Assembly (NCBI GenBank): GCA_049701555.1
Contig: JBNATO010000001.1
Span: forward strand, 12,380-40,131
Reading direction: 5' to 3'
Length of the DNA stretch: 27,752 nt
Source of the DNA: Thermacetogeniaceae bacterium
GTDB taxonomy: Bacteria; Bacillota; DSM-12270; Thermacetogeniales; Thermacetogeniaceae
A model generated the notes under the pieces. The model was given only the letters and a program-made list of their open reading frames with translations. It was not told where the DNA came from and did no database searches. This document shows positions 7,240 to 22,756 of this stretch, piece after piece. Positions within the stretch are counted from its first letter, which is position 1, and each line of letters opens with the position of its first letter. A program made the translations under genes and the position numbers.

Positions 7240-7896
7240 ATGTCGGAAGCGCCGAGGGGCGCGGTTCTACAGAGGGACAAGGCCACTTACGCCATCATCC
7301 CGAAGCTGCCGGGGGGTCTCATCACGCCTGAGGTCCTGAGGAAGATCGCCGACGTGGCAGAGAAGTACAAGATACCTGTGCTCAAGATCACCGGAGCCCA
7401 GAGGATCGCCCTGGTCGGCCTCAAGCCCGAGGATGTGGAGGCCGTCTGGCAGGAGCTGGGGATGGAGCCTGCCCCCGCCGTGGGGAAGGTCGTGCGCAGC
7501 GTCAAGGTCTGCCCGGGGACTGCCGCCTGCAAGCTCGCCCAGCAGGACTCCCTCGGGCTCGGGCTCAAGCTCGACGAAAAGTTCCTGGGGATGGAGCTCC
7601 CCTCTAAGTTCAAGTTCGGGATCTCGGGCTGCCCCAACAACTGCGCCGAGGGCTGGGTGAAGGACTTCGGAGCCTTCGGGCGTGCCAATGGCTTCACTGT
7701 CGTGGTGGGGGGCAACGTAGGGGCGAAGCCGCGGCTCGCCCAGGTGCTCGCCGAGGACTTAAGCGCTGACGAGGTGATCGCACTCGCCGAGAAGGTGCTC
7801 AGCGTCTACAAGGAAAAGGCGAGCTCAGGCGAGAGATTCGGGAAGTTCCTGGAACGCATCGGCTTCGAGGAGTTCAAAAGGCTCGTTACGGGCTGA
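7240..7896 (+). CDS. Stand-alone nitrite/sulfite reductase domain protein (NIR_SIR ferredoxin-like half plus siroheme-[4Fe-4S] domain)
   Basis: IIPKLPGGLIT, LKITGAQRI, CPGTAAC and GISGCPNNCAE (four siroheme/cluster Cys), ERFGKFLERIG. RBS GGGAGG. Confidence 0.88.
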   Translation: MSEAPRGAVLQRDKATYAIIPKLPGGLITPEVLRKIADVAEKYKIPVLKITGAQRIALVGLKPEDVEAVWQELGMEPAPAVGKVVRSVKVCPGTAACKLAQQDSLGLGLKLDEKFLGMELPSKFKFGISGCPNNCAEGWVKDFGAFGRANGFTVVVGGNVGAKPRLAQVLAEDLSADEVIALAEKVLSVYKEKASSGERFGKFLERIGFEEFKRLVTG

Positions 7897-7912
7897 GGCT
7901 AAACCTCAGCCC
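7890..7912. terminator. Hairpin between convergent genes, probable terminator
   Basis: GGGCTGAGG-ctaaa-CCTCAGCCC, 9-bp stem, followed by TTCT on plus; lies between the stops at 7896 and 7922. Confidence 0.65.
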
Positions 7913-7921
7913 TTCTGTATA

Positions 7922-10084
7922 TCAGCAGGCATCTGAGGGCTTTTCCGCCGGGAGCAGGAGGTAGAAGGTGCTCCCCTTGCCGAGCTCGCTCTCCACTTCG
8001 AGCCTCCCCCCGTGCCTCTCCGCGATCATTCTGGAGATGCAGAGGCCGAGGCCGGTCCCCTTTCGCTTGGTGGTGTAGAAGGGCATGAAGATCTTCTCCC
8101 TGTCCTCATCTTTTATGCCGCAGCCGCTATCCCTGACGGCGATGAACACATAGCGATCGCGTCGGCCGGTGTAGATCCTGATGACGCGCTCATTTTTCCC
8201 CTCAACGGCATCCCGGGCATTGAGGAGCAGATTGATCAAAACCTGCTCCAGCTGCTGCTTGCTCCCCAAAGCCCTCAGCCCCGGTTCACACGACTCCTTG
8301 ATGATGCGCACGCGCGAGCTCTCGATCTGATGGGCGACCAGATCCAAGGCTGCGTCGATGACGTCCTGGATCTCGATGCTCTCGAAGTTGTACTCTTCCT
8401 GCCGTGCAAAGGTGCAGAGGTTCTGGATGATACTCTTGCAGCGCTCGCCGCACGACCTGATCCCCTCCATCAGCTGCCTCGCTCTCTCCGGCGTGAGATC
8501 AGGCCAGCTTTGCAGCAAAATCAAGGCATTCCCGATGATGGCCGTGAGGGGGCTGTTGAGCTCGTGGGCGACGCCAGCGGCCAGCTCTCCGATGGCGGCG
8601 AGCTTGGCAGACTGTACGATCTGCGCCTCCAACGCCACCCTCTCTGTGACATCGTGGACAACGCAGACGACCTCACGCACCTTTCTCCTCTCATCGAAAA
8701 TGGGGTGAGCGGCGAACTCGAACACCAGACCGTCCGAAGTATGGAGGCGCCACTCGTTAGACCTCCCCTTCAAGAACACATCTCTTATCTGACAAACCTT
8801 GCAGCTCTCCTGCTCTCGGAAACAGAACCTCTCCCCGACCTCCAGCCGCCGCTTCCAAGGGGTATCGAAGGGCTTGTTAAACCTGACGAGGCGGCAACGG
8901 CGGTCGACCACCAACAGGATATCTGTGGTGGCGTTGAACGTGGCCAGCCACTCAGCCTTTGCCTTTTCCTCCTCTCTGTAGAGCCTGACGTTCTCCAAGC
9001 ACAGGGCCAGCTGGTCTCCCACCTTTTGCAAAAAAGAGATATCCTCCTGGGTAAACCTCTGGGGATGGGATCTTGCCAAACACATCAGAGCGACCACTTC
9101 CCCCTTGATGCTCAAGGGTACCGCCAAAACCTGGTAACTGCGGCCCTGCTTATCCCCCGTCTGGATGCAGCAGACCTTTTTCCCTTTTACCGCATCCCTG
9201 TAGATCCTGCTCCATAGCCTTCCCAGCTGGAGTTCTGAGGCTCTCAGCCGACCGGGAGAACATGCCCTTTCAACAGTTCTCCCTTTCTCGATGAGATTGA
9301 TGCTCAGGTAATCAAAAGAGAGCATTTTTCTCAGAATCCTTTTGGTCTTTTCCAGAATCTCCCTCAGAGGCATCCCCACACTGATCTCTTTGGATATCTG
9401 GTTGATCGCTTCCAGCTGGCTGTTGGCGTACTCCATCTCCTCGAGGAGCGCTGTCACGACCTTATAGCTGTTCTCCCACTTCTCGCGCAGCATCGCTTCT
9501 TCTTGATAGAGCTTGGCGTTTTCGATGATCAGGCCGAGGTGATCCGCCACCTGCTGCAGATATTGGCCGTCCTTGGCGGAATAGGCGTTCTTCAGCCTGC
9601 TGCCGAGGTTCAGCGTCCCCAGCACGCTCTTCCTCGATCTCAACGGAACGATGATAAACGACCTGATGCCGTACTCCAGAAGCCCTGCCGCATAAACCCC
9701 TCCATCGGCCTGGATATCAGACTTGATTGAAAGCTGCCCCCTCCTCACCACCTGCCACGACCAGGAGCGGCTGCGGTCGAGGACAGTCCCCTTTCCGAGC
9801 ACCGGCGCGTCCTCCGGCAGAGCGGTTTTCACGATCAGGTCGCCGTCCTCCAGGAGGCAGAGGTTGAGAAGGTCATAGTCGATCAGGCGCCTGAGCTTTC
9901 TTCCCACGTCGCACATGATCTCATCGAAGCTCATATTCACCCTGATCGACCCGGCTATCTGATTGAGGATCTCCAGCTGCAGAATCTTCTCGCTGAGCTC
10001 AGCGAGCTCCACGTATTTATCAGGGAGCAAAGCCTCCCCCGCCTTGAGATCGGCTGAGGCACCAGTGCCTTCCTTATGCAGCAT
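7922..10084 (-). CDS. Cytoplasmic sensor histidine kinase (GAF-GAF-PAS-HisKA-HATPase, NtrB-like)
   Basis: H-box GVAHELNSPL, N-box QVLINLLLNARDA, DSGCGI, FMPFYTTK, GTGLGL. Two homologous GAF blocks, no TM segment. Start at ATG 10084 or GTG 10117. Confidence 0.9.
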   Translation of the reverse strand: MLHKEGTGASADLKAGEALLPDKYVELAELSEKILQLEILNQIAGSIRVNMSFDEIMCDVGRKLRRLIDYDLLNLCLLEDGDLIVKTALPEDAPVLGKGTVLDRSRSWSWQVVRRGQLSIKSDIQADGGVYAAGLLEYGIRSFIIVPLRSRKSVLGTLNLGSRLKNAYSAKDGQYLQQVADHLGLIIENAKLYQEEAMLREKWENSYKVVTALLEEMEYANSQLEAINQISKEISVGMPLREILEKTKRILRKMLSFDYLSINLIEKGRTVERACSPGRLRASELQLGRLWSRIYRDAVKGKKVCCIQTGDKQGRSYQVLAVPLSIKGEVVALMCLARSHPQRFTQEDISFLQKVGDQLALCLENVRLYREEEKAKAEWLATFNATTDILLVVDRRCRLVRFNKPFDTPWKRRLEVGERFCFREQESCKVCQIRDVFLKGRSNEWRLHTSDGLVFEFAAHPIFDERRKVREVVCVVHDVTERVALEAQIVQSAKLAAIGELAAGVAHELNSPLTAIIGNALILLQSWPDLTPERARQLMEGIRSCGERCKSIIQNLCTFARQEEYNFESIEIQDVIDAALDLVAHQIESSRVRIIKESCEPGLRALGSKQQLEQVLINLLLNARDAVEGKNERVIRIYTGRRDRYVFIAVRDSGCGIKDEDREKIFMPFYTTKRKGTGLGLCISRMIAERHGGRLEVESELGKGSTFYLLLPAEKPSDAC

Positions 10085-10226
10085 TACCAGACCCCCCAAA
10101 CCCCGAAGTGCCCTCACCTCTAGCTTAACTCCTCCGACCCGCTAAAACAAGCGGGCCAGCCATGGAGATTTTCTCCGGAGCTTAAAGGCACATCTGCACT
10201 CTACTCCCGCGCCCGGACAAAAAAGT

Positions 10227-10276
10227 AGGGAGAGCCTGTCCTTGAGGCCTCGGCCTAACGCGGACAGGCTCTCCCT
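10227..10276 (-). terminator. Rho-independent terminator of the GRE operon
   Basis: 15-bp perfect arms AGGGAGAGCCTGTCC (10227-10241) and GGACAGGCTCTCCCT (10262-10276), followed on minus by ACTTTTTT; about 30 bp after the stop at 10306. Confidence 0.8.
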
Positions 10277-10305
10277 GCAGAAAACCGCCGAAATCTTATG
10301 CTGCG

Positions 10306-11583
10306 CTATGACTCCTCCACCCAGCGCTTGATCTCGCCGTATCCATCCCAGACGACCTCGCCGGTATCCCGCTTGACCATCTTCACAGCGGCCTGCGGGC
10401 AGTTGCCCAGGCACCAGCCGCAGCCCATGCAGTATTCGTCGTTGATCTGAGGGCCTTTTTCCTTATCCAGCGTCAGAGCGCCATACGGGCACAGCCTCTC
10501 GCAGGTGCCGCAGCGGTTGCACTTCTCCAGGTCGTACTGCGGGATGATCGGCGACGGGTGCTGCATCGGGTTCTCACGCGGGAAGTCGCGCAGGTAGGAG
10601 AACCTCGGGACACAGATCCCCAGCATGTCCTTGATGGTCTTGTAGCCCTTGCGGTCCATGAACTCGTTGAGGCCCTCGATGATCTCGCCGATGACCTGGA
10701 CTCCTCTCGTGTAGATCGTGGAGCAGAGCTGCACCGTCGGGCACCCTGCCATGATGTATCTCACCACGTCATCCCAGGTGAAGATCCCGCCGATGCCGGA
10801 GCAGGGGATCTTGACAGTTGCCGTGATCTCCAGCACCTTGGCGAGAGAGAGCGGCTGCCAGGTGCGGCCGGGGAGGAAACCGCAGGAGAAGGGCCCTCCG
10901 TAGAAGGTGCCTGTCTCATGGTCTATCCACGTCCCGTAGAAGGCGTTGTTCGCCGAGATGGCATGTCCTCCCGCCTTCTCCACAGCGAGCGCCACCTCCG
11001 CCATGCGCACGCACTGCGGCGTCATCTTGAACATGATCGGGGTCTTGACAGCCTCAACGCAGGCCTTGGTGACCTCATAGGCCTTCTCGGGGTCCAACGC
11101 CAGCGGAGCCCCTACCTCCTTGTGTTTGGCCTCGGCGCCGAACGTGGCGTGCGGACCGCCTGTGTCCAGCTCGATCATGTCCACACCCAGCTTCTCCATG
11201 TCCACGCAGAGCTCAGCCCAGGTCTCAGCGTTCGTCCCTATCCCGGAGATGCTGGCTATAAACACCACATCGTTCTCCTTGCACAGGTCCCTGATCCTGG
11301 GAGCGATCTCATCGCGCCACTTTTCGTAAGGGATGTGGCTGAACATCTCGGAGCAGATCCAGGTGTCGCGCAGCTCCTTGCCGAAGCGCCTGAGGGAATA
11401 GAAATAGGGCCTAGGCCAGCGGTGGACGCCATCGATCTTGTGGACTGTCTTCGACACCAGCCCACCTATCCCCTGGGCGATGACCCTTTTGGCCATGTGC
11501 AAGGTCTCACCGAAGTCGTTCGAAGAGACGAGCACCGGGTTTTTGAATTTGATGCCGCACATCTCTGTCCTCAAATCAGCCAT
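10306..11583 (-). CDS. Dihydropyrimidine dehydrogenase PreA / DHODH-like FMN enzyme with a C-terminal 2x[4Fe-4S] domain; non-canonical active site
   Basis: GIKFKNP, VSKT, FKMTP, GIGGI, VQLCS; CNRCGTCERLCP and CMGCGWCLGNCP. ELDTGGPH stands in place of ELNxSCP(H/N). RBS GAGGAGG. Confidence 0.85.
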   Translation of the reverse strand: MADLRTEMCGIKFKNPVLVSSNDFGETLHMAKRVIAQGIGGLVSKTVHKIDGVHRWPRPYFYSLRRFGKELRDTWICSEMFSHIPYEKWRDEIAPRIRDLCKENDVVFIASISGIGTNAETWAELCVDMEKLGVDMIELDTGGPHATFGAEAKHKEVGAPLALDPEKAYEVTKACVEAVKTPIMFKMTPQCVRMAEVALAVEKAGGHAISANNAFYGTWIDHETGTFYGGPFSCGFLPGRTWQPLSLAKVLEITATVKIPCSGIGGIFTWDDVVRYIMAGCPTVQLCSTIYTRGVQVIGEIIEGLNEFMDRKGYKTIKDMLGICVPRFSYLRDFPRENPMQHPSPIIPQYDLEKCNRCGTCERLCPYGALTLDKEKGPQINDEYCMGCGWCLGNCPQAAVKMVKRDTGEVVWDGYGEIKRWVEES

Positions 11584-11635
11584 ATCTATACCTCCTCGGG
11601 ATTTTTATGACTTATGATAAAGCCACTTCCTGCCC

Positions 11636-12556
11636 TTACATCATCCTGCCGACGGAAACCTTTAAGCCGCATTCCTCAAGGATCGCCTTCGCCCTGGCGA
11701 CATCTTCTTTGGTCAGATCCCGGAAGCTCCCGTACGGAGACTTCATGCCGAGGTAGCCGTACTTGCCTGTTCCCAGCTTGTGCAAGGGATTGAGGTCGAT
11801 CCAGGAGATCCCCAGCTCCCTCGCAAACTCAGCCGTCCTCCTCAGGTTTTCCTCAGAATCGTTGAAGTCCGGGATCAAGGGGAGGGAGATCCTCACCTTT
11901 CCGCTTTTGGCAAGAAGCCTAGCGTTCTCCAGGATCAGCTCGTTGCTGACCCCAGTCCCTTCCTTGTGCCTCTGGGGGTCCATGTGCTTGATATCGAGCA
12001 GGAAGAGGTCTGTCCACTGCAGAGCCTTCTCTATGTTCTCGGGCGAGGTGTAAGCCGTCGTGTCCAACACCGTGGTGATCCCTCTCTCCTTGCATGCCTG
12101 GAGTATGGCAAGAGCAAACCTCGCCTGGTAGAAGGGTTCGCCGCCGCTCAAGGTGACGCCTCCGTCATCGCCGTAAAACGGCAGGTCCTTTTCTACCTCA
12201 GCAACGACCTCAGCGACCGAATACTCCCTTCCAACCTCGATAAAGGCCTGGTTGGGGCAAGCCGCCACGCACTTCATGCAGAGCGTGCACTTCTCCCTGT
12301 CGACCTTGTTCTTTTTGTCCATGCTCAGAGCGCCCGCCGGGCACTCTCTCACACAAGCCCCGTACCCCTGGCACCTCTTGCTGATGAAGTAAAGCTGGCG
12401 CTCCAGCGTCCAGGTCTCGGGGTTGCAGCACCACCTGCAGCGCAGCGGGCACCCCTTGATGAAGACGGTCGTCCTGATCCCTGGGCCATCGTGGGTGGCA
12501 AACCTCTTGATCTCGGTGATGACGCCTCTGATATCTTCCCCAAAGCTCTGAGGCAT
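11636..12556 (-). CDS. Glycyl-radical enzyme activating enzyme (radical SAM, with ferredoxin-like insert)
   Basis: HDGPGIRTTVFIKGCPLRCRWCCNPE, GVTLSGGEP, LDIKHMD. Insert CQGYGACVRECP / CTLCMKCVAACP. Likely start ATG 12556; the ORF track extends it into the upstream gene. Confidence 0.94.
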   Translation of the reverse strand: MPQSFGEDIRGVITEIKRFATHDGPGIRTTVFIKGCPLRCRWCCNPETWTLERQLYFISKRCQGYGACVRECPAGALSMDKKNKVDREKCTLCMKCVAACPNQAFIEVGREYSVAEVVAEVEKDLPFYGDDGGVTLSGGEPFYQARFALAILQACKERGITTVLDTTAYTSPENIEKALQWTDLFLLDIKHMDPQRHKEGTGVSNELILENARLLAKSGKVRISLPLIPDFNDSEENLRRTAEFARELGISWIDLNPLHKLGTGKYGYLGMKSPYGSFRDLTKEDVARAKAILEECGLKVSVGRMM

Positions 12557-12563
12557 CTCAGGA

Positions 12564-13154
12564 TCACTCTTTGATCTTGATCCACGGCGGCCCAAGGGAG
12601 ATGACTTGCCGCTTGAAGGTGCCGTTGAGGATGATGGCAGCGCTCTGCCAGATGATCGTCAGGATCATCAAGGGGAGGTCCCACGTGGCGATGACCCAGA
12701 ACGGTTTGAAAGAGGTCAGGAAGTAGAGCGCAGCAAACAGGAAGAAGACATCAGTCCAGATCATGAAGAGCGTGGGGCCTGTTCCTTTGATCATGTACGC
12801 CGGGGTGAAGCTGATCATCAACAGAGCCATTATCAGAAACACCCAGCCGTCGACCGCAGCGGTGTTGTGCGGCAGCAGCTTCAGGCACTGGAGCAGCTTC
12901 TCGAACATGCCATACCACATGAAGGAGCTGAAAGCCAGCATGATGTTTCCAGGGCCGACCTCTCCTATTCTGAGCTCGATAATCCCTGAGATCACCTGCA
13001 CCAAGCCGCCGCAGAAGCCCAGCGCCACCAGTATGTAAATCAGCTCGTGAGGCGCCATTCCGGCAGCCACAGGCCAGAGACACCCCAGGTAAAATGCGAG
13101 CACCATCATCCCCGCAGGCGCGGGAGTCGCCCAACCCTTATTGTCAGACATCAC
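12564..13154 (-). CDS. GPR1/FUN34/YaaH (AceTr/SatP) family small carboxylate channel
   Basis: About six TM helices; WATPAPAG resembles the NPAPLGL signature; GGLVQVISGIIELRIG and AFSSFMW. RBS AGGAGG. Confidence 0.75.
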   Translation of the reverse strand: MMSDNKGWATPAPAGMMVLAFYLGCLWPVAAGMAPHELIYILVALGFCGGLVQVISGIIELRIGEVGPGNIMLAFSSFMWYGMFEKLLQCLKLLPHNTAAVDGWVFLIMALLMISFTPAYMIKGTGPTLFMIWTDVFFLFAALYFLTSFKPFWVIATWDLPLMILTIIWQSAAIILNGTFKRQVISLGPPWIKIKE

Positions 13155-13188
13155 ATTCGCCCTCCTATCCGCTTAGTCTGGAATCCTC

Positions 13189-14454
13189 TCATTTCACGCT
13201 CAAGTAGCGGACGAGCACCCTGTAGTTCCAGGGGTAGGGAGAGTTGATCAGGGTCACCTTTTCGATCTCGGAGCGCAGTTCGGCCATGTTCACCCTTCTC
13301 CTCATTGCTCCCAAGAGAATCCCCATCTTATCGGCGTATCTCCCTATCGCCTGAGCCCCTACGAGCACGCCCTCCTTCAAGATCAGCCTGTAGTAGTCGC
13401 CGTCTCTCCGCTTCTCCACAAGCTCCACGCCGGAGGTATCCCCCATCATCGTCAAAGTCCTGCCGATGGATATGGCATGTGTGTGGAAGAAGTGAGCCCT
13501 TGCGAAGTTCCACGCCCCGGCATATCTCTTCCGCAACCCCAGGCAGTTGGCAGCAGCCACCTCGGCCTGCTCCACAGCGTTGTGCTTCAGGAGATAGAGG
13601 GCGCTCTCTCCGGTGATGGCATCCCAGGACTCGACGCAGTCGCCGCAGGCGTAGACGTCTTTCCCGCTGGTCGCCATGTGCTCATCGACCTTGATCCCCC
13701 GCGATCTCGCGACATCGATCCCTGCGTCAGCGGCGATCTTGCTCGAGGGGACGACGCCTGCTGCCACGACCACCGTGTCGCATTTGATCTGGCGCTTGTC
13801 CGTGGTCACTCCCTGCACGCAGCGATCTCCGTCGATGCTCTGCACCTTCTCCTTTACCAGCACATTGATGCCGTTCCTCTCGAGGTCCTCCTTGAGCAGC
13901 TCGGCTGCTTCCCTGTCGAAGACGCGGGGCAGGATCCAATCCATCAGCTCGATCAGGTAGACCTCATAACCCCGCTTTTTCAGCGCCTCGGCAGCCTCGA
14001 TCCCGATCAGACCAGAGCCGATCACAACAGCCGCAGAGCCGCGATGCGCTGCCAAAGCATCGGCGTCGGCGAGGACCTTGCAGCAGAAGACTCCCTTCTT
14101 ATCTACCCCCTTTATCGGTGGAATTACCTGATCGCCCCCTGTGGCGATGATCAGCCTATCGTAATCCAGGGCTTCCCGGTTTTCCAGAACGACCTTCTTC
14201 GCCTGCCTGTCTATTCCCACGGCTCTCGTTCCAAACCTCGTAACGATGCCATCCTGCTCGTAGTCGCTTAACTCTCTGAAAAAGAGCACCTGCCGCGGGA
14301 CATCTCCGCTGACGTAGTATGGAAGGGCACCGGGCTCATATGCCGGGCAGTCTTCGGCTGAGACCATCACTATCTCACAGCTGTGGTCATACCTTCTGAT
14401 GCATCTCGCTGCAGCATTGCCAGCGATGCCGTTCCCGACGATCACGACCCTCAC
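13189..14454 (-). CDS. FAD/NAD(P)-dependent oxidoreductase (AorC / NirB N-terminal / rubredoxin reductase type)
   Basis: IVGNGIAG, ATGG, VIGSGLIGIE, VDEHMATS...YACGDC. Likely start GTG 14454 after RBS GAAGGAG. Confidence 0.88.
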   Translation of the reverse strand: MRVVIVGNGIAGNAAARCIRRYDHSCEIVMVSAEDCPAYEPGALPYYVSGDVPRQVLFFRELSDYEQDGIVTRFGTRAVGIDRQAKKVVLENREALDYDRLIIATGGDQVIPPIKGVDKKGVFCCKVLADADALAAHRGSAAVVIGSGLIGIEAAEALKKRGYEVYLIELMDWILPRVFDREAAELLKEDLERNGINVLVKEKVQSIDGDRCVQGVTTDKRQIKCDTVVVAAGVVPSSKIAADAGIDVARSRGIKVDEHMATSGKDVYACGDCVESWDAITGESALYLLKHNAVEQAEVAAANCLGLRKRYAGAWNFARAHFFHTHAISIGRTLTMMGDTSGVELVEKRRDGDYYRLILKEGVLVGAQAIGRYADKMGILLGAMRRRVNMAELRSEIEKVTLINSPYPWNYRVLVRYLSVK

Positions 14455-14483
14455 AGCATTCACTCCTTCGATGAATGATTCTG

Positions 14484-14514
14484 GAGCCCGGGCCCAGGAG
14501 TCAGGCCCGGGCTC
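14484..14514. repeat. Intergenic GC-rich inverted repeat (11-bp stem, no U-tract)
   Basis: GAGCCCGGGCC-caggagtca-GGCCCGGGCTC between the AOR and FAD genes. Confidence 0.8.
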
Positions 14515-14527
14515 TCTTACCTTCCGC

Positions 14528-16522
14528 TCACGCCTTCCCCTTGGATGCCAGGTATTGGCGGTAGAGCTCCTTCCCTTTTTCAATATCTTCGATTATCTCC
14601 TCGATGCCGAGCTCCTTCGCCTTCTCCGGAGTGATGAATCCGTCATCATCCCAGCCGTGCAGGCGGTAATACTCCGACTGCGCCCATTCCCATTCCTTGC
14701 GGTCGATCTTGATCCCCTTGTAGGGCCCATCGACGACCGGATCCTCGAAGTACCTGTCGATATGGGTGTCGTCCTGGCGGGCGCTCCCCTCTCGGTTCCA
14801 GTGGGCACGCTCGATGTTGATGACGCGCTCCGCAGCCTTGAAGATCTCCTCGTCTGGGAGGTCTACGCCGGTTGCGAGGCGCAAGAGCGGCGTGTACGAC
14901 CTCCAGTCACCCGCACCGCCCCAGGAGCCGATGGCCTGGCAACACATGCCCACAAGGTCAGCGACGCACTTGTTCTTCTCCGACCAGGTGCAGAGCTTGG
15001 GCTTGGTCTTCAGGGTGTAGAGCTCCTTCGGGAAGTCCTTCCAGAACTCCTCGGTCAGCTCAGGCCCAAGGACCTCGGCGACGAGCTCCTTCCGGCTCAT
15101 GGCGCAGCCCTGGAACTCCAGGCAGGAGTAGTTCTTCAGGTGGTCGGAGCCGCGGGTGGACATGGCGTAGCCGAGGCTGAAGCCCATGGCGATCCGCGGG
15201 TCGACGCTGATGTGCTCAAGCCCACGGCAGTGCGGCACGAGCTTTTCGGTGCCGCGCCCGATCTTCTCCGCAGCCCGGATCGCTCCCTCTGCGAGGACGT
15301 CGCCGAAGCCCTTGCGGAAGGCGATCATCTCGAGGACCTTCATGGCGGTGTCGAGGTCGCCCCACTCGAAGGTAAGGCCGCCGGTGTCCTCCTTGGTGAG
15401 CAGCCCCTTCTCCCAGCACTCCATCGCCCAGGAGATGGCCCCACCGGCGGAGATGCTGTCCATCCCTAGATCGTTCACCATACCACAGAGGACGTTGACA
15501 GTTTCCACGTCGTAGGTGTCGAGGCGCGGCCCGAGGTTGCAGACGCTCTCCATCTCCGGCCCGCCGGCATGGAAGCCCGCAAAGCGGCCTTCCTTGATCA
15601 GCGTGTAGCGGCCGCAGCAAACGGGGCAAGACCAGCACCCTTTGCGGCGGAAGAGGAATTTCTCCGCCCACTGGAGGCCGCCGTAGGTCTCCTCAAGGCC
15701 CGGCATGTAGCCTGTGCTCACGTTCCTGTGGGCGTTGATCCCGATGATGTTTCCGGCGTCGAAGAGGTCCATCGTCCCCTCGATGCGGCGCCTGATCGCA
15801 GAGGGAGAGTTGTGGATCTTCTCCCGCAGCGCCCAGCAGGCCTCCGCGAACTCCTTGGGCTTGGCGAAGGTGATCGGGCGGTTCCCCCTGACGGCGATCG
15901 CCTTCAGGTTCTTGGAGCCCATCACAGCGCCCATGCCCGTCCTGCCGCCTGCGGCGCTGAAGGAGTTGACGATGCAGGCGAACCTCACCAGGTTCTCACC
16001 GGCAGGCCCAATGCAGGCGACCCTCACATCGGGGTCATCGAGCTCGTTCAAGATCCTCTTGGTCGTCTCCTTGACGCCCAATCCCCAGAGGTGTGAGGCA
16101 TCGCGGATCTCGATACGGTCGCCGTCGACCAAGATCCAAACAGGCTTGTCCGCCTTCCCTTTGACGACTATCTGGTCGTAGCCGGCGTACTTCATGTAGG
16201 CAGCGAACTGGCCGCCCATGTTGGTGTCGCCATGCCCGTGGACATTGGTGCCTCTGTACGAACAGGTCATCGGGGAGCGCGCCGAGACCGTAGTCCTGCC
16301 GGACAGGGGAGCAAACGTTCCAGCGAGGGGGCCTGTGCCGAAACACAAGGGGTTGGCCGGGTCGAAGGGGTCCATCCCCTGCCATGTCTCGTGGTAGACC
16401 ACCTCTGAGTTGAATCCTCTGCCGCCGATCCACTTTTTGAGGTAATCCAGGCTCAGCTCTTCTATCTCATACTTGCGCTCTGTAAGGTCAATCCTCAACC
16501 TGCGTCCTGCCCAACCATGCAT
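14528..16522 (-). CDS. aor: Aldehyde:ferredoxin oxidoreductase family tungsto/molybdoenzyme, catalytic subunit
   Basis: GWAGRRLRIDLT, IGGRG, AGYDQIVVKG, IGPAGENLV, GMGAVMGSKNLKAI, CWSCPVCC, DPR...STRGSDH, YYRLHGWD. Start ATG 16522 (RBS GGGAGG) or 16531. Confidence 0.93.
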   Translation of the reverse strand: MHGWAGRRLRIDLTERKYEIEELSLDYLKKWIGGRGFNSEVVYHETWQGMDPFDPANPLCFGTGPLAGTFAPLSGRTTVSARSPMTCSYRGTNVHGHGDTNMGGQFAAYMKYAGYDQIVVKGKADKPVWILVDGDRIEIRDASHLWGLGVKETTKRILNELDDPDVRVACIGPAGENLVRFACIVNSFSAAGGRTGMGAVMGSKNLKAIAVRGNRPITFAKPKEFAEACWALREKIHNSPSAIRRRIEGTMDLFDAGNIIGINAHRNVSTGYMPGLEETYGGLQWAEKFLFRRKGCWSCPVCCGRYTLIKEGRFAGFHAGGPEMESVCNLGPRLDTYDVETVNVLCGMVNDLGMDSISAGGAISWAMECWEKGLLTKEDTGGLTFEWGDLDTAMKVLEMIAFRKGFGDVLAEGAIRAAEKIGRGTEKLVPHCRGLEHISVDPRIAMGFSLGYAMSTRGSDHLKNYSCLEFQGCAMSRKELVAEVLGPELTEEFWKDFPKELYTLKTKPKLCTWSEKNKCVADLVGMCCQAIGSWGGAGDWRSYTPLLRLATGVDLPDEEIFKAAERVINIERAHWNREGSARQDDTHIDRYFEDPVVDGPYKGIKIDRKEWEWAQSEYYRLHGWDDDGFITPEKAKELGIEEIIEDIEKGKELYRQYLASKGKA

Positions 16523-16585
16523 AGAGCTCATTCCTCCCTTATGCTGAAATTTCCCTGTTGGTCAGCCTCCCACAAACCCGGGGCA

Positions 16586-17146
16586 TCAACCGAAGCTGAA
16601 GCCGAACTGTATCCCTTCTTCCTTGACGCCCTTGGGCTTAAACTCTTCTTTGAGCTGCCAGGCCAGACCGCGGCCCTTGACCTGCGACACCTTATACTTG
16701 GGAACATACATCAAGGCCTTTTGCATAGTGCACGCCCGGACGCACCAGGGGGTCTCCTCGCCGCCGCAGAGGTCGCAGGTCATCGTCTTCCCGTTCTCGG
16801 GGTTGATCACGGGCGCCCCGTACGGGCAGACGTAGATGCACGCCCTGCAGCCTATGCAGGCATCCTCATTGGTCACCACAGCGCCGCTGGCCAGCCTGAC
16901 CCTGGCACCCATCGGGCAGACCTTGATGCAGGCGGCGTCCGCACATGCCTGGCAAGTTATGGGGATAAAGGTGTTGACCTCGCGGAACTCCTGGATCCTG
17001 ATCCTCGAATAGTTGGGATGGTTCTTCTGGAAGTGCTTCATCGAGCAGGCCATCTCGCACGAATGGCAGCCAGCGCACTTCTCGGGGTCGATGACGATCA
17101 CCATCTGATTCATCTCTGCTACCTTCACTCGATCTCTCTCATCCAT
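16586..17146 (-). CDS. 4x[4Fe-4S] electron-transfer subunit (DmsB/NrfC/AorA type)
   Basis: CAGCHSCEMAC, CQACADAACIKVCP, CIGCRACIYVCP, CDLC...CVRAC. Start ATG 17146 after RBS GAGGAGG. Confidence 0.92.
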   Translation of the reverse strand: MDERDRVKVAEMNQMVIVIDPEKCAGCHSCEMACSMKHFQKNHPNYSRIRIQEFREVNTFIPITCQACADAACIKVCPMGARVRLASGAVVTNEDACIGCRACIYVCPYGAPVINPENGKTMTCDLCGGEETPWCVRACTMQKALMYVPKYKVSQVKGRGLAWQLKEEFKPKGVKEEGIQFGFSFG

Positions 17147-17207
17147 CAGCCACACACTCCTCCTCGTTTTTCTTTTATCCGACACCGGCAAACCGCTGAG
17201 GGCAGTC

Positions 17208-17251
17208 CCCTGCTGCGGCAGGGGGCCAGAAGGGGCTCTGCCGCAGCAGGG
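17208..17251. repeat. Intergenic GC-rich inverted repeat (14-bp stem, no U-tract)
   Basis: CCCTGCTGCGGCAG (17208-17221) and CTGCCGCAGCAGGG (17238-17251), between the hydrolase and Fe-S genes. Confidence 0.8.
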
Positions 17252-17258
17252 CAAACCT

Positions 17259-18317
17259 TTAGGCAAGCCCGATCAGCTTCGCCGGGACTTCCTTGGCCAT
17301 GACGTTGATGTCAGCCTCATCTACTCCCTGAGACATGAGGATCCTCAGGAAGTGCCACCAGCCGGTAACAGGCTCATTCCCGGGCTGGCCGGCATCGCTC
17401 GCCAGCACCAGATGGTCGGGGCCCTTTTCCTTGATCAGCTCTTTGATCAGGTTCATCGAGTAGTCGAACGCCACAACCCAGTCCTGCATTCCTGGCCAGG
17501 GGATGCAAGAGCACTCACAGAACTGCATGTAAGCGCCGAGGTCGATCATCTCCTTCGCTTCCTCAGGGGTGACGATCGTCAGCTCTTGCGTGCAGTGGTC
17601 GACGACGCAGTCGACATCGATGCCTCTCCTCTTGATGTACTTGAGGATCGCCACCTTCTCCTCATTGGAGACATGGCAGAGGGCAAGCACGCAGCGTTCA
17701 CCTTTCCTGTTCTTGTTGAAGTCTGCGATGATGTCGATGATCTCCTTCATCTTGTCGACAGGCTCGTCGCCCTCAGCCACCACGATCCCGCCTTCCAGCC
17801 CCATAGCTGCCCTCTGGTGCCAGGCGTCAAGGGACGGCAGCCAGATCGTCCTGCACCGCCCGTAGCCGAGGGCTGTCTGCACCATCTTGGGGTTCAGGCC
17901 GCCCACCGACTCGTTCAGCGTCACCCCGCCGTAGACCTCGACAGGCGTGAACTCCTTGCCCTGCGCCTCCAGTTCCTTCTTCAGCGCATCCATCATCTCG
18001 GTGATAACCGTGGCCGCATGGTGTGTCCAGCAGTTGTGGTCCTTGAAGACTAGAGCCCTCATCCCCGCCTTGCTAGCCTCGAGGCAGGTCTCGGTCATCG
18101 GCGGGCGCCCTGCCAGCCAGGCTCCCATCGGCGCCCCGTGGATGTGGATATCGATCACACCCTTCAGGACCTCGTTGACCTTCTCCCGCTCCACCGGCCT
18201 GCCGGGGTTGAAGTACTTGTACGGCCATACCTCGCTGGTGCGTCGCTGCAGCTCCTCCTCGGTGATCACGCGGCCAAACTTCTTCGCCTTCCACTCTTCA
18301 TGCGCCTTTACCTTCAC
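17259..18317 (-). CDS. Amidohydrolase-superfamily metal-dependent hydrolase, DUF6282-like
   Basis: IDIHIHGAP (HxH), FKDH, GGVTLN...GGLNP, LCHVS, VVDH, LASDAGQ metal-ligand pattern. The DUF6282 call is from memory. Confidence 0.72.
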   Translation of the reverse strand: MKVKAHEEWKAKKFGRVITEEELQRRTSEVWPYKYFNPGRPVEREKVNEVLKGVIDIHIHGAPMGAWLAGRPPMTETCLEASKAGMRALVFKDHNCWTHHAATVITEMMDALKKELEAQGKEFTPVEVYGGVTLNESVGGLNPKMVQTALGYGRCRTIWLPSLDAWHQRAAMGLEGGIVVAEGDEPVDKMKEIIDIIADFNKNRKGERCVLALCHVSNEEKVAILKYIKRRGIDVDCVVDHCTQELTIVTPEEAKEMIDLGAYMQFCECSCIPWPGMQDWVVAFDYSMNLIKELIKEKGPDHLVLASDAGQPGNEPVTGWWHFLRILMSQGVDEADINVMAKEVPAKLIGLA

Positions 18318-18379
18318 ACCGCTTCCCCCTTTTTTCGAGATTTTTTATAAAAGCAAAGCCCATGGTCGGCGACACGCGG

Positions 18380-20851
18380 TTACAGTTCCTCGAACTCCGT
18401 TCTCTCGATGATCTGCCGCTGTACATCTGGGCCGAGGTCGATGAACCTGGCGGTGAACCCGGCGACCCTGACCATCAGGTCGGGGTACTTCTCGGGGTGC
18501 TTCTGGGCGTCCAGCAGCATCCTCCTGTCGACGATGTTGAACTGGATCTGGTAGCCACCGAGGCGGAAATAGGTGTCACAGAGCCTGATGAACTTCTCGG
18601 TGCCGATGTCACCGGAGACGGCAGCTGGGTTGAACTTCATGTTGAAGAGCGTCGCCTGCAGGTTGTCAGCATGGACCTTGGCCGCAGACTTGATCATGCT
18701 CGTGGGGCCATTCACGTCAGTGCCGGGGAATGCCGAGATAGCGCCGTCTGCCAGGTAATCGCCCGCCTTTCGGCCATCAGGGCTGGCGCCGCAGGCCTTT
18801 CCGTGCAGGACCTGTGTCGTCACAGAGAGGGTGCTCGGGCGCCAGGGCTCGCCCAGCCAGTTCAATCTCTTCTGAGCGCTCTCAGACCAGGCGTCGTAGA
18901 GGTCCACCAGGATCTGGTCGACATAGTCGTCGTCGTTGCCGTACTTCGGGGCTTCCTTCAGCTTGCGGCGCAGGAGCTCATGGCCCTCGAAGTTGTCGGC
19001 AAGCGCCTTCTTGATCTCCTGGATGGTGTAAACCTTGTCCTCGTAGACGAGCTTCTTGAGCGCAGCCAGGCTGTTGGCGACGTTGACCATGCCGCAGGTG
19101 ATCACGTAAGCGGGGTCGTTGTAGCGGCAACCTCCCTCATAGGCGTGCATCCCCTTTTCCAAACAGTCGTCGAGGAGGGCAGACATGAAGGGGTGAACGA
19201 GGCCGAGCTCGTTGTGCACCAGCATGATGGTGTTCCAGTACTCTTCCTGGCGGTCTACGATCAGGTCCATGATCCTCTTGTACTCAGCGACGATCTCCTC
19301 GTATGTGGCCTTTTCGGCATCGATCTGGGTATCCACGAGCTTATCGCCGGTCACAGGGTTTACCCCGTTGTTGAGGACGAGCTCCAGGATCTTTAGGTTG
19401 TTGGTATGTGGTATGGCGTACATCGGCATCCTCTTGCCGCAGATCTGTATGTCCACGCAGCCGCAGGGAGCCCAGTCCCTGGCGTCCTCTAGGTTGGCGC
19501 CGGTCACTCTCATAAACCTCTGTGTGGCCAACTCATCGTTGAACAGCGCCGGGTAACCGTTTCCAGCCTTGATCGCCTCTATAACCTTCCTCTTGAACTC
19601 CTTGCTCATATCCTCGCGCCAGCGCACAGAGATCGTCGGCTGCCATGTCTTCACGTTGATCCCTGCCTGCAGGATAAGGCGCGACAGCTCGTTGTCCGCA
19701 GGGCGCCCGTAACGGTCTACACCGCCGATGGTCAAGTTCTGGTATACGCTGCCGCCGAGGTAAGACTCCGTAAACGTGGCGTGCGCTCTGGTGATCTCCG
19801 AGCATTTGATCCGCATCAGCTCCAGCAGCTCCAAGGCCTGCGCCTCTGTGATCCTGCCGGAGTCGATGTCGTTCTTAAACGGCCTGTACATGTACTGGTC
19901 GAATCTCCCCGGCGAAATCCCTCTCCCGTTGAGCTCGATGAAGAGGCAGACATGGGTGAACCAGAACGACTGCATCGCCTCGTGGAAGGTATCGGCGGGC
20001 TTCCTCGGGACCTTGCGGCAGATCCTGGCGATCTCTAGAAGCTCCTGCTTTCTCCTGTCATCCTTACACTCCGCCGCCAGCCTCTCGGCCTCTCTGGCAT
20101 AGTTTTCGGCAAAGGCGATGACACCCTCGAGAGCCAGTATGGTCCCTTTGTAGAAGTTGTACTTGTCGAGCTTCTCCTTTGTGTTCAGCTGTCCAAGCCT
20201 GGCGATCTTCTCCTCGATGAGGGCGATCAAGGCCTCAAGGCCGAGGTCGATCACCTTCTGGTAGTCGACGATGACCCTCCCCTCAGGAACATCGAACATG
20301 AACCTCAAGAAAACCAGCTGCTGCTGCCACTTCTCCACCTGGTCGAAGTCGGGCATCGTCGCCTTGAGATACCTCTCGGCCACGCTCCTCCAGTCGCGGC
20401 CCTCCCAGAACTTGCAGACCTCAAGGATCTTCTCCTGGTCCTCCTCGTAGATCCTGTAGATCCCCAGCCTGTTTCCGCCGCGCTCCTGCAAGGTTCCCTT
20501 GATGTAGCGCTCCTCGACCCTCTTGATGTTCTTGAACCCCTCGAGCATCCACGTCTCGTACTCAGGGTAGACCTGCGTCCCGCGGAAGTACCTGGAGATG
20601 TTCCCGACTATCAGCTCCTCGTCCCAGATCCTCGGGGTGAGGTTTTCCAGGACGTACTTCAGAGCACCGCCTGCCCTCAGGTAGACCGGCTCGTTCCAGT
20701 GCTCCTTCATGTACTCGGTGAACAGCACCGCACGCTCAGAGTCGATAAAGGGCTCCTCAGAGACCAAAGCTTCAAACCTCTTCTTCACGCGCTCTGTCGA
20801 AGGAGCCCCCTTTACCTCCCTGTCGACGTACGCCACCTCTCCCTTCGACAT
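18380..20851 (-). CDS. Glycyl radical enzyme (PFL-like superfamily) of unknown specificity, resembling the arylacetate-decarboxylase group
   Basis: Gly loop VRVAGF (18455-18469), Cys loop APCGCVD (CGCVD at 19451-19465), ELIVG, SPGRFDQY, GNGYPALFND, PKYGNDDDYVD, QFNIVD. Start ATG 20851 after GGGGGAG; 823 aa. Confidence 0.95.
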   Translation of the reverse strand: MSKGEVAYVDREVKGAPSTERVKKRFEALVSEEPFIDSERAVLFTEYMKEHWNEPVYLRAGGALKYVLENLTPRIWDEELIVGNISRYFRGTQVYPEYETWMLEGFKNIKRVEERYIKGTLQERGGNRLGIYRIYEEDQEKILEVCKFWEGRDWRSVAERYLKATMPDFDQVEKWQQQLVFLRFMFDVPEGRVIVDYQKVIDLGLEALIALIEEKIARLGQLNTKEKLDKYNFYKGTILALEGVIAFAENYAREAERLAAECKDDRRKQELLEIARICRKVPRKPADTFHEAMQSFWFTHVCLFIELNGRGISPGRFDQYMYRPFKNDIDSGRITEAQALELLELMRIKCSEITRAHATFTESYLGGSVYQNLTIGGVDRYGRPADNELSRLILQAGINVKTWQPTISVRWREDMSKEFKRKVIEAIKAGNGYPALFNDELATQRFMRVTGANLEDARDWAPCGCVDIQICGKRMPMYAIPHTNNLKILELVLNNGVNPVTGDKLVDTQIDAEKATYEEIVAEYKRIMDLIVDRQEEYWNTIMLVHNELGLVHPFMSALLDDCLEKGMHAYEGGCRYNDPAYVITCGMVNVANSLAALKKLVYEDKVYTIQEIKKALADNFEGHELLRRKLKEAPKYGNDDDYVDQILVDLYDAWSESAQKRLNWLGEPWRPSTLSVTTQVLHGKACGASPDGRKAGDYLADGAISAFPGTDVNGPTSMIKSAAKVHADNLQATLFNMKFNPAAVSGDIGTEKFIRLCDTYFRLGGYQIQFNIVDRRMLLDAQKHPEKYPDLMVRVAGFTARFIDLGPDVQRQIIERTEFEEL

Positions 20852-20950: not shown

Positions 20951-20968
20951 TTGCAATTTATGTGCCAT
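20951..20968 (-). promoter_or_regulatory. Sigma54 (-24/-12) promoter of the GRE operon
   Basis: Minus strand reads ATGGCAC-ATAAA-TTGCAA, an exact TGGCAC-N5-TTGCA with GG-N10-GC spacing, about 100 bp before the GRE start. Confidence 0.9.
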
Positions 20969-21170: not shown

Positions 21171-22640
21171 ATGGGGCGAATTCTCATCGTCGACGATGAC
21201 CGCGATGTGTGTAATTTTTTCTTTTATCTCCTCGAGCCGAAGGGACACGAGGTTTTATTGGCAGAATCGGGAGAGAAGGCCAGAAGGGCATTCCGCCAGC
21301 CGCTGCACTTAGCCATCCTTGACCTCAAGCTTCCCGATGCCGATGGCCTGGAACTCCTCAAAGAGGTCAAATCTCACCAGCCGAGCTGCGAAGTGATCAT
21401 GATGACAGGCTACTCCACCGTAAGATCTGCTGTCAAGGCCATCCAGCTAGGGGCCTTCGATTACCTGGAAAAACCTTTCAGCAACCTGGACGCCTTGCAT
21501 GAGGTCATCAACAAAGCCTTGAACAAGGCGACAACCCTGATGTCCCAAGAAGCGCCCGCCCTGGAAGAAGGGATAGGGAGCATCTTGAAAGAGCTCGAGT
21601 TCATCGCCGGAAAAAGCGAGAGCATGCGCAAGCTCCTCATGATCGCCAAAAAGCTCGCCAACAAGAACATCCCCATACTGATCCAGGGGGAGACAGGAAG
21701 CGGAAAGGAGATGGTGGCGCGCTTCATCCACGCCGCCAGCAGCAGGGCCAGCAGGCCGTTTATGGCGGTCAACTGCGGAGCTTTGCCGGAGAGCCTCCTC
21801 GAGAGCACGCTCTTTGGGCATGAGCGGGGAGCATTCACAGGAGCCACAAACCAAGTAAAGGGAATATTTGAGCTGGCGCACAAGGGCACCCTCTTCCTGG
21901 ACGAGATCGGCGACGCCAGCCAGGAGATCCAGGTAAAGCTGCTGAGGGTGCTGGAAACCGGCGAGGTGTTCCGGATCGGAGCGGAAAAGCCCATCCATGT
22001 CGATGTGCGGCTGATGGCGGCGACCAACAAGAACCTGGAAGAGCTCGTGGAGCAGAGGGTATTTCGTGAAGACCTCTTCTACAGGTTGAACGTCGTCACC
22101 CTGGAGGTGCCCCCGCTGCGCCAGAGAAAAGAGGAGATCCCTGACCTCATCGAGCACTTCCTCGCCAAATACTACTTCCCAGCGAAACCGCCCCTGCTCA
22201 CGCCACAGGCGAGGAAGGCCCTGCTCGACTACCATTGGCCCGGCAACATCAGGGAGCTTCGCAACGTCATAGCGCAGATCGCCGCACTATGCGACCAGCC
22301 GGAGATCCGGCTGGAACACCTGCCGAAGAAGGTGCTGAACAGGACAGAGCATGGCAAAAGGCTTGCTGCAGCCCCCTCAGAGGACAGGCCCGCATCGCCG
22401 GTTCAGCTCTTCTTCGATGATCTCGAGGCAAGCTTTGACAGGCTTCTGAGAAGCATCGACATCACCTCTGGCGTCGACCTCCCAGAATTCCTCGACAAAT
22501 TCCGAGAACACAAGCTGCGATTCGCAAGGGCTTTGATCGACAAGGCATTAAAGGAGACCAAGGGGCGTTGCCGGGAAGCCGCGGCGCTGCTCCACACCAC
22601 ACCGCGCCATATAAAATACCTGAAAAACGAAAAACAATAA
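21171..22640 (+). CDS. NtrC-family sigma54-dependent response regulator (REC-AAA+-HTH)
   Basis: ILIVDDD, AILDLKLPD, GETGSGKE, ESTLFGHERGAFTGA, LFLDEIG, DLFYRLNV, WPGNIREL. Confidence 0.95.
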   Translation: MGRILIVDDDRDVCNFFFYLLEPKGHEVLLAESGEKARRAFRQPLHLAILDLKLPDADGLELLKEVKSHQPSCEVIMMTGYSTVRSAVKAIQLGAFDYLEKPFSNLDALHEVINKALNKATTLMSQEAPALEEGIGSILKELEFIAGKSESMRKLLMIAKKLANKNIPILIQGETGSGKEMVARFIHAASSRASRPFMAVNCGALPESLLESTLFGHERGAFTGATNQVKGIFELAHKGTLFLDEIGDASQEIQVKLLRVLETGEVFRIGAEKPIHVDVRLMAATNKNLEELVEQRVFREDLFYRLNVVTLEVPPLRQRKEEIPDLIEHFLAKYYFPAKPPLLTPQARKALLDYHWPGNIRELRNVIAQIAALCDQPEIRLEHLPKKVLNRTEHGKRLAAAPSEDRPASPVQLFFDDLEASFDRLLRSIDITSGVDLPEFLDKFREHKLRFARALIDKALKETKGRCREAAALLHTTPRHIKYLKNEKQ

Positions 22641-22659: not shown

Positions 22660-22677
22660 CTGGTACAGAATTTGCAT
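22660..22677 (+). promoter_or_regulatory. Sigma54 (-24/-12) promoter of the MoxR-VWA-MoaD-MoeB operon
   Basis: CTGGTAC-AGAAT-TTGCAT with GG-N10-GC spacing, about 80 bp before the MoxR start. Confidence 0.8.
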
Positions 22678-22756
22678 TTTGATGACTAACAAGAGAAAAA
22701 TTTAGCGACCTTTTTATCAGCAGCTTGGTTAGAAATACTCTGGAGGAGTGATCTCA

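Follow-up and report, generated by a model that had tools for sequence, protein, structure and literature searches.

A stretch of 27,752 nt from a Thermacetogeniaceae bacterium (contig JBNATO010000001.1; hereafter the window, meaning the whole stretch at its full length) carries on its minus strand eight co-oriented genes, which begin with a gene for a glycyl radical enzyme (GRE) and end with one for a relative of PreA (Table 1). We regard it as highly probable that this locus encodes a conserved, undescribed pathway centred on the GRE. GREs perform some of the hardest oxygen-free reactions. Since the operon is conserved and its GRE is nearly always accompanied by the PreA-like protein and by a protein of the DUF6282 family, it probably encodes a route, so far undescribed, by which an organic acid with a ring is broken down without oxygen. 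From the gene set, its conservation, the placement of the families and the residue patterns we infer what type of reaction is involved, in which order the steps run and to what class the substrate belongs. The reading that we favour, tentatively, is Kolbe-type decarboxylation of a (hetero)arylacetate-like acid, after which the ring would be reduced and opened hydrolytically.

The GRE matches the two Pfam profiles expected of its class (PF02901, 610 bits; PF01228, 105 bits) and reaches none of the NCBIfam equivalog cut-offs. The best NCBIfam model is that of indoleacetate decarboxylase (IAD; 708 bits against a cut-off of 1100), and the model of 4-hydroxyphenylacetate decarboxylase (HPAD) gives 505 bits against 1150. 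Identity is 37% to a genuine IAD (locus L056, 1760 bits on the IAD model) and 35% to a genuine HPAD encoded by the same genome on a different contig. The GRE thus clusters with no characterised enzyme, in keeping with the preliminary description of this DNA. In a scan of one genome per species, 37 GRE loci were at least 68% identical, followed by a sharp fall to 39% or less. More than 100 cluster representatives, metagenomic without exception and from many phyla, make up the family at 60-87% identity, and the glycyl motif RVAGF with Gly798 is invariant in it.

In a maximum-likelihood tree rooted with PFL, the GRE family forms a single clade (100/100) whose closest relatives are IAD plus HPAD (99/99), and it stands apart from HypD, CutC and HpsG. 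It is a sister group with a separate long branch (0.52) and is not nested in the IAD/HPAD clade; an unrooted tree agrees with this placement. The rooted tree contained the PFL outgroup, two CutC, two HpsG, three HypD, one IAD, five HPAD-like and 12 unassigned GREs. Its CutC was taken from another phylum, since no candidate from the class of G002 reached the cut-off. When PDB sequences were searched with phmmer, PFL2-type structures were roughly equidistant (277-486 bits), so that no assignment is possible from that search. The same metagenome-assembled genome (MAG) has a genuine HPAD on contig C33 (L051), where the large subunit (1495-4206; 1653 bits, cut-off 1150) is followed by an 89-aa small subunit (4236-4505) and then by an MFS-like open reading frame (ORF; 4614-5699). 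The organism thus already makes p-cresol, and the window GRE is a second, different enzyme.

Both the glycyl and the thiyl loop are present, as in the IAD of Olsenella and in HPAD. The thiyl Cys465 aligns with Cys500 of IAD and Cys503 of HPAD, and the Cys loop reads DWAPCGCVD-Q-CG in 30/30 aligned family members. All 30 therefore have C-x-D (C-V-D), with Asp467 in the window GRE, versus C-x-E in characterised GREs. According to a June 2026 review of GREs, the C-x-E Glu is kept in every eliminase and isomerase and is named as catalytic in HPAD and IAD; the review lists no class of GRE locus with the partners found here. The differences from IAD and HPAD are an identity of only 35-37%, the Asp in place of the loop Glu, and extra cysteines at -2 and +6 (Cys463 and Cys471), which give the pattern C-G-C-V-D-x-Q-x-C around the thiyl Cys.

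The pocket, mapped on the 2026 structure of OuIAD, resembles that of IAD in part. Arg226, Leu616 and Leu730 of OuIAD correspond to Arg192, Ile584 and Leu675, each invariant in 30/30, so that the Arg that stacks on the ring is kept and positions 616 and 730 of IAD stay hydrophobic. Arg226, which makes this stacking contact, is essential in IAD, and so are Leu616 and Phe401 (PMC13450708; PMC13232127). Phe401, Phe517, His514 and Trp392 of IAD become Tyr370, His482, Ala479 and Thr361, respectively. The mapping indicates a pocket that is IAD-like in layout, no smaller and more polar, and that would fit a planar, hydrogen-bonding ring bearing a carboxylate. The GRE also resembles IAD in having no small subunit.

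These residues bear on one of three models in the preliminary description, in which the GRE, as a 1,2-eliminase of the lyase or dehydratase kind, makes an aldehyde that an aldehyde oxidoreductase (AOR) oxidises. An AOR does sit in the operon, short segments of the GRE such as VYQNL resemble glycerol dehydratase and CutC, and glycerol dehydratase is the best PDB sequence match. However, the Glu of C-x-E is absent, which forms a hydrogen bond to the hydroxyl of the substrate and is kept by every eliminase and isomerase (the class of GDH, PD, CutC, HypD, IslA, HpsG, HplG and YbiW), and the diol-binding residues are missing as well (His164, Ser282 and Asp447 of glycerol dehydratase are replaced by Arg, Gly and Ala). 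The family branches away from HypD, CutC and HpsG and groups with the decarboxylases, and the AOR is dispensable, being absent from about half of the related loci. We consider a lyase very improbable.

About 40 related loci were compared by tblastn of all window proteins, gene tables and all-against-all ORF clustering. The conserved core consists of the GRE, its activase, the PreA-like protein and the DUF6282 protein, which occur together in about 20 loci and in several gene orders. Their hosts are Bacillota, Desulfobacterota, Synergistota, Bacteroidota, Actinomycetota, Coatesbacteria and the cultured Enterocloster aldenensis. The PreA-like and DUF6282 families are as narrowly distributed as the GRE. 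The activase, encoded within the operon, matches TIGR02494 with 337 bits, above the cut-off of 174. Co-conservation of the whole cassette, which the preliminary description had proposed examining, therefore extends across phyla for the core, but the trio of Fe-S, AOR and FAD subunits (AorABC) and the AceTr-like gene are lineage-specific. They are restricted to part of the GRE family, namely the window's Thermoanaerobacterales-like lineage, Pelotomaculum, Desulfobacterota, Synergistota and Coatesbacteria, and are replaced or absent in other loci, so the eight genes are not one indivisible unit. In a gut-type subclade the set is reduced to DUF6282-activase-PreA-GRE-MFS; it includes chicken-caeca Eggerthellaceae, a Hadza-gut Firmicute, Syntrophomonas, Eubacteriales and the cultured E. 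aldenensis.

What stands in the place of AorABC varies. In L023 (Bacteroidales MAG, 3922-15561), and partly in L010, AorABC and AceTr are replaced by an ADP-forming acyl-CoA synthetase and an XDH-family Mo enzyme. The latter has three subunits, with 4-hydroxybenzoyl-CoA reductase alpha or XdhA as the best model, below cut-off; it is ambiguous, as it could serve in aldehyde oxidation or in ring hydroxylation. L022 has a 2-oxoacid:ferredoxin oxidoreductase (OFOR) and a phosphotransacylase (PTA), and E. aldenensis an indolepyruvate:ferredoxin oxidoreductase (IorAB) and two PaaK-like ligases. These replacements largely correspond to the classical routes by which anaerobes reach arylacetates from 2-oxoacids, acyl-CoAs or aldehydes that stem from aromatic amino acids. 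Taken with AorABC, the accessory modules (acyl-CoA synthetase/XDH-family, OFOR/PTA, IorAB/PaaK-like) mostly suggest that a carboxylic acid is formed. In gut-type loci the immediate neighbour of the GRE is an MFS transporter that belongs to the OFA/SfMCT monocarboxylate class. The MFS genes beside IAD and HPAD fall into this class too, and their products have been proposed as arylacetate importers (PMC6181972). One locus has an MFS of the aromatic-acid:H+ symporter type.

The PreA-like protein is the most tightly linked partner of the GRE and is often encoded directly upstream of it. It aligns to residues 531-1009 of pig dihydropyrimidine dehydrogenase (DPD), that is, to the FMN and C-terminal Fe-S domains. 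Relative to pig DPD it has the changes N609C, N668D, C671G and T737A, so that of the catalytic Cys671 and the pyrimidine-binding Asn609, Asn668, Asn736 and Thr737 only Asn736 is kept, and this pattern is conserved in 16 homologues. The NCBIfam model of PreA gives 214 bits against a cut-off of 335, and no PreT-like gene was found in the operon. Its close relatives form only two 50%-identity clusters in 1.84 billion representatives, and the next tier, which lies on short contigs, is 34-36% identical. Long proteins with PreA-like domains, also considered, are ordinary permuted DPD fusions. Some Desulfobacterota genomes (L001, 22444 onward; G633, contigs C19 and C36) have two PreA-like copies, and G633 has two DUF6282 copies as well, which hints at paralogous pathways.

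The GRE loop and the altered PreA-like protein together raise a different prospect, a non-decarboxylating chemistry new to GREs that would use the C-G-C-V-D loop for a net reduction or for PFL-like acyl-enzyme C-C cleavage. For the net reduction, one possibility is that the PreA-like protein re-reduces a pair of cysteines, on the pattern of class III ribonucleotide reductases. The invariance of Cys463 and Cys471 in a family whose sister enzymes lack them, the exchange of the loop Glu for Asp, the loss from the PreA-like protein of residues that DPD needs for substrate protonation, and the tight linkage of the two genes would all suit such chemistry. On the other hand, we identified in the PreA-like protein no motif of the thioredoxin-like or disulfide-reductase kind, the GRE family is sister to decarboxylases and far from PFL, and archaeal members of the family do without a PreA-like partner. 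We judge new chemistry of this kind improbable.

The DUF6282 protein scores well above its Pfam cut-off of 26.8 bits (Table 1). An AlphaFold model (pLDDT 82.6) has the (beta/alpha)8 barrel of amidohydrolases, and Foldseek matches it to PTE-like lactonases (probability 1.0, TM about 0.5), phosphotriesterases, renal-dipeptidase-like enzymes and LigI. None of its top 50 structural matches is an enamidase, a dihydropyrimidinase or a dihydroorotase, and a sequence search against the PDB gave no significant match. Invariant in the family are H58, H60, K92, D93, H94, H215, H241 and D308. Of these, H58, H60, H215, H241 and D308 would supply the His and Asp ligands of the binuclear metal site of amidohydrolases, whose set is HxH, a bridging Lys after strand 4, His, His and Asp. 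Among the matches listed, all relatives are at least 51% identical.

The preliminary description compared the pairing of reductase and hydrolase with the nicotinate fermentation of Eubacterium barkeri, where ring reduction at the level of ferredoxin, by 6-hydroxynicotinate reductase, is followed by amidohydrolase-type opening to an aldehyde, by enamidase. To our knowledge, that pathway has no GRE. Nicotinate dehydrogenase, the mutase and other nic genes are not conserved in the related loci, and the enamidase analogy is weakened by the likeness of the DUF6282 model to PTE-like lactonases and renal-dipeptidase-like enzymes. Other precedents are the ferredoxin-dependent PydA of Clostridium chromiireducens and the UacX/SsnA pair, in which, as with the PreA-like protein, an Fe-S FMN barrel stands alone, lacks an FAD/NAD subunit and adjoins an amidohydrolase. 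In the reductive uric acid pathway, UacX, a DHO_dh-family reductase, acts together with SsnA, an amidohydrolase, to dearomatise an N-heterocycle and open its ring, and reduction can be detected only when coupled to hydrolysis (PMC12507026). The operon differs from PydA and UacX in a PreA-like protein with substitutions at the catalytic Cys and at three of the four positions that bind the pyrimidine, and from UacX/SsnA in that the hydrolase is of the DUF6282 and not the Amidohydro_1 family and that a GRE is part of the unit. From IAD and HPAD the locus differs in turn by the reductase and hydrolase partners of the GRE, which look obligatory and which no decarboxylase locus has.

In the favoured reading, a planar, hydrogen-bonding carboxylate of the (hetero)aryl- or heterocyclyl-acetate type would be imported or made in the cell. 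In the window's lineage the AorABC-type enzyme would make this acid from the matching aldehyde, delivering low-potential electrons and NADH. The GRE would then remove CO2 by Kolbe-type radical decarboxylation as in IAD and HPAD, with Arg192 stacked on the ring and Asp467 in the proton-relay role of the usual Glu. The PreA-like enzyme, stand-alone and probably ferredoxin-dependent, would reduce the ring of the product. Hydrolytic opening of the reduced ring would fall to the DUF6282 protein with its metal-dependent amidohydrolase fold, a step suggested by the way reductase and amidohydrolase are paired in the Pyd pathway and in UacX/SsnA. Finally, the AceTr-like channel would move a small acid across the membrane. 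This sequence comes closest to another model of the preliminary description (acid formation, decarboxylation by the GRE, ring reduction and hydrolysis), which fits best of its three. The type of reaction is read from phylogeny and residues. As to individual substrates, imidazole-4-acetate, oxindole-3-acetate, the pyridone, uracil and thiazole acetates, dipicolinate, orotate, malonate and coumarins were considered, and none is supported by the evidence.

Several observations count against this reading. The loop Glu that is essential in IAD is Asp467 here, and the reading does not account for the invariant cysteines at -2 and +6, which IAD and HPAD lack. Glycerol dehydratase, not HPAD, tops the phmmer scores of the GRE against the PDB (486 versus 340 bits), and PhdB, AAD, BSS, glycerol dehydratase and propanediol dehydratase are not in the tree. 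Of the DPD active site, the PreA-like protein has lost the catalytic Cys and three of the four residues that bind uracil; its substrate, and even C=C reduction, is uncertain. The nearest folds to the DUF6282 protein are those of lactonases and dipeptidases (TM about 0.5), not of cyclic amidases, and its invariant Lys92 follows strand 2, not strand 4, in the model. Lastly, in whole-genome searches of incomplete MAGs, both the PreA-like and the DUF6282 gene are absent from the basal archaeal MAG and from that of L010, and one Syntrophomonas MAG, also incomplete, has the PreA-like gene but no DUF6282.

The archaeal members, L005 (Nezhaarchaeota) and L070 (Hecatellales archaeon), have the GRE and the activase only, with no adjacent partners. 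No archaeal PFL-like GRE has a known function according to the June 2026 review. The L070 pair is flanked by a Liv-type ABC transporter, and that of L005 adjoins Amidohydro_1, RibD_C and CofG/CofH genes. RibD_C and Amidohydro_1 were considered as replacements for the missing partners and set aside, since the adjacent CofG/CofH suggest riboflavin or F420 biosynthesis.

Much of the same evidence bears on whether the steps could run in the reverse order, with the PreA-like and DUF6282 proteins reducing and opening an imported unsaturated lactam, lactone or N-heterocycle, the AOR (in this lineage) oxidising the resulting aldehyde, and the GRE decarboxylating the acid. A reductase-plus-amidohydrolase pair, going by precedent, normally starts a pathway, and DUF6282 does resemble lactonases. 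Likewise consistent with this order are two features of the divergent locus L071, a RidA gene and a permease of the NCS1 nucleobase/hydantoin type, and the XDH-family enzyme beside the GRE in L010 and L023, which could be a ring hydroxylase. However, the ring-stacking Arg and hydrophobic ring contacts that the GRE shares with IAD argue for a substrate that is still planar, and the archaeal members have the same pocket, sit beside a transporter and lack both partners. The reverse order, close to the remaining model of the preliminary description, also needs an AOR between hydrolase and GRE, and the minimal gut-type loci have none. We hold the reverse order to be unlikely.

Another alternative ends a reductive pyrimidine-like pathway with the GRE: a small dicarboxylate, malonate or methylmalonate, would be formed from its semialdehyde via the AOR and decarboxylated, and acetate or propionate would exit by the AceTr-like channel. 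That channel and the SfMCT-like MFS do suggest small monocarboxylates, the PreA-like protein and amidohydrolase mirror PydA and PydB, and Arg192 could bind a second carboxylate. Yet neither a beta-ureidopropionase nor a transaminase is conserved in the loci, the uracil-binding residues are mostly lost from the PreA-like protein (three of four), and the minimal loci lack an aldehyde-oxidising enzyme. The pocket, no bulkier than that of IAD (Ala479, Thr361), is also ill-suited to a C3 substrate. We give this alternative little chance.

We found no paper that describes this GRE family or its partners, that describes a GRE locus with these partners, as the preliminary description had surmised, or that combines GRE, AOR and amidohydrolase. 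Nor did we find one that mentions DUF6282 or links E. aldenensis to the C-x-D GREs. Papers in which a GRE occurs with DPD or an amidohydrolase proved to be incidental citations, though they yielded the UacX/SsnA precedent. Newly characterised GREs have each opened pathways that matter for the environment or for medicine (choline to trimethylamine, hydroxyproline, cresol, skatole, sulfonates). The present family, a large one, spans phyla and has a cultured human-gut bacterium among its hosts; it has Asp in place of a loop Glu that is near-universal among characterised PFL2-type GREs, and it is coupled to two protein families without known function. More speculatively than the decarboxylation itself, the C-G-C-V-D GREs may have a reaction type or a substrate class new to GREs and, with the PreA-like and DUF6282 proteins, form a new anaerobic heterocycle route found from oil reservoirs to the human gut. 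Were the substrate found, DUF6282 and a new branch of the DPD/DHODH family would gain a function, and it could become clear how strict anaerobes degrade a ring compound lacking a known anaerobic route. As the conserved core has few genes and one host is culturable, the question is directly testable. The division into core and accessory genes, the rooted sister placement, the mapping of the pocket onto the structure of IAD, the parallel between transporters, the partnerless basal members and the cultured host are new here.

In the window itself, the AOR trio has a counterpart in AorABC of Aromatoleum aromaticum (PDB 8C0Z), an NAD+/ferredoxin-linked tungsten enzyme, with which it shares the three-subunit architecture, the catalytic and cluster residues, and nearby MoaD/MoeB-like and MoxR/VWA genes. 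The polyferredoxin subunit matches 9mqx_E and 8c0z_C in the PDB, and the best match of the FAD subunit is 8c0z_E, the FAD subunit of the Aromatoleum AOR. The catalytic subunit, in contrast, is closer to Pyrococcus AOR (1aor, 381 bits) than to AorB (8c0z_A, 280 bits), and the trio, a putative tungsten or molybdenum enzyme, is embedded in a GRE operon. The catalytic subunit carries an insertion of about 40 residues. Aligned to 1aor, it keeps Glu313 and His448, both catalytic, as well as the four cysteines of the cluster, and so does not deviate at catalytic residues. The deviations from active-site consensus that had been noted for several members of the operon are thus borne out for the GRE (C-x-D) and the PreA-like protein (the four substitutions given above) but not for the AOR.

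The AceTr-like gene always accompanies the AOR trio across the related loci. Its product matches the NCBIfam model AceTr_1 with 23.6 bits (E 4.7e-5), below the cut-off of 50; it has no Pfam match, and a rescan from the later start gave nothing at E 1e-5. An N-terminal ANPxPAG-type motif is conserved in 11 homologues, and the size of the protein and this NPxP-type motif fit AceTr/SatP (GPR1/FUN34/YaaH) channels.

Gene identities in Table 1 come from Pfam and NCBIfam profile matches, and gene starts were refined by ribosome-binding sites and homologue lengths. All eight co-oriented genes reported earlier were found again at the same coordinates, with short gaps of 62, 112, 54, 73, 37, 7 and 52 nt from the GRE to the PreA-like gene. 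The single sigma54 promoter and the single terminator reported with them are also there.

Table 1. Features of the GRE operon and its flanks in the window
Feature	Position	Strand	Basis and remarks
sigma54 (-24/-12) promoter	20952..20967	-	TGGCAC-N5-TTGCA; TGGCACATAAATTGCA; 116 nt upstream of GRE start
GRE (P0001), 823 aa	18380..20851	-	Pfam PFL-like + Gly_radical domains
DUF6282 protein, 352 aa, amidohydrolase-superfamily TIM barrel	17259..18317	-	PF19799, 134 bits
AorA-like polyferredoxin subunit	16586..17146	-	Fer4 domains; probable start ATG 17146, 186 aa
AorB-like W/Mo-pterin aldehyde oxidoreductase, 667 aa	14528..16531	-	AFOR_N + AFOR_C domains
AorC-like FAD/NAD oxidoreductase subunit	13189..14454	-	Pyr_redox_2; probable start GTG 14454 or 14463
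Probable AceTr/SatP-like small carboxylate channel, 195 aa	12564..13151	-	Weak NCBIfam AceTr_1 match
GRE-activating radical SAM enzyme	11636..12556	-	TIGR02494; probable start ATG 12556, 306 aa
PreA/PydA-like FMN barrel with C-terminal 2x[4Fe-4S], 425 aa	10306..11583	-	DHO_dh + Fer4 domains
Intrinsic terminator	10219..10275	-	14-bp G+C-rich hairpin stem, then T-run TACTTTTTT; 3' of last gene; read directly
GAF-GAF-PAS histidine kinase	7922..10117	-	Pfam domains; just downstream of operon
sigma54-dependent response regulator	21171..22640	+	Response_reg + Sigma54_activat domains; divergent from operon
Second sigma54 promoter	22661-22676	+	TGGTACAGAATTTGCA; just past activator stop codon
MoxR-like AAA+	22748-23629	+	Pfam
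183-aa ORF, then VWA/CoxE-like gene, then MoaD/MoeB-like genes	24229-25164 (VWA/CoxE-like); MoaD/MoeB-like to 26206	+	Pfam

The promoter upstream of the GRE (20967-20952) is the sole exact match to its pattern in the window, where 0.02 would be expected by chance, and no sigma70-like promoter was found inside the operon region. Among the related loci, only the four that have the sigma54 activator as well (L003, L006, L008 and L009) show an equivalent promoter, 72-134 nt upstream of the GRE. In the window, the divergent response regulator is likely to be the activator of the operon, and the histidine kinase its likely sensor partner. Orthologues of the regulator (55-62% identity) adjoin the GRE in L003-L009, and orthologues of the kinase (47-53% identity) adjoin both regulator and GRE in L003-L008. 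Other lineages have PAS kinases, PucR or GntR regulators instead, those of the PucR family in three loci.

Past the regulator, the genes under the second sigma54 promoter (22661-26206) are likely to serve in maturation of the AOR cofactor. This is suggested by MoeB- and MoxR-like homologues that trail the operon in other AOR-type loci: in L003 and L006 the PreA-like gene is followed by a MoeB/ThiF homologue (67-68% identity), and in L029 by a MoxR homologue. Maturation factors, AorDE, are known for the Aromatoleum AOR (PMC9295118). On the other side, upstream of the kinase gene, a Crp/Fnr-type regulator and then a small nitrite/sulfite-reductase-like protein are encoded at 6471-7896 on the plus strand; this pair appears unrelated to the operon. 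Public DNA runs that contain the sequence are crude-oil, hot-spring and subsurface metagenomes, and no RNA run was found to contain it.

One related locus has an AroM-family gene with a sub-threshold match to the Asp/Glu/hydantoin racemase family, which, like the PucR-family regulators, counts in favour of the decarboxylation reading. L071 (ENA contig, GRE at 10001-12454) is a divergent member at 60% identity, with the loop CGCVDINSTKRPPQW and no adjacent core partners. Its neighbours are a CoA ligase, a split Amidohydro_2, the RidA gene, two B12-dependent mutases and MeaB, together with a thiolase with an OB-fold partner, an epimerase and the NCS1-type permease. L071 may represent a CoA-dependent variant of the pathway.

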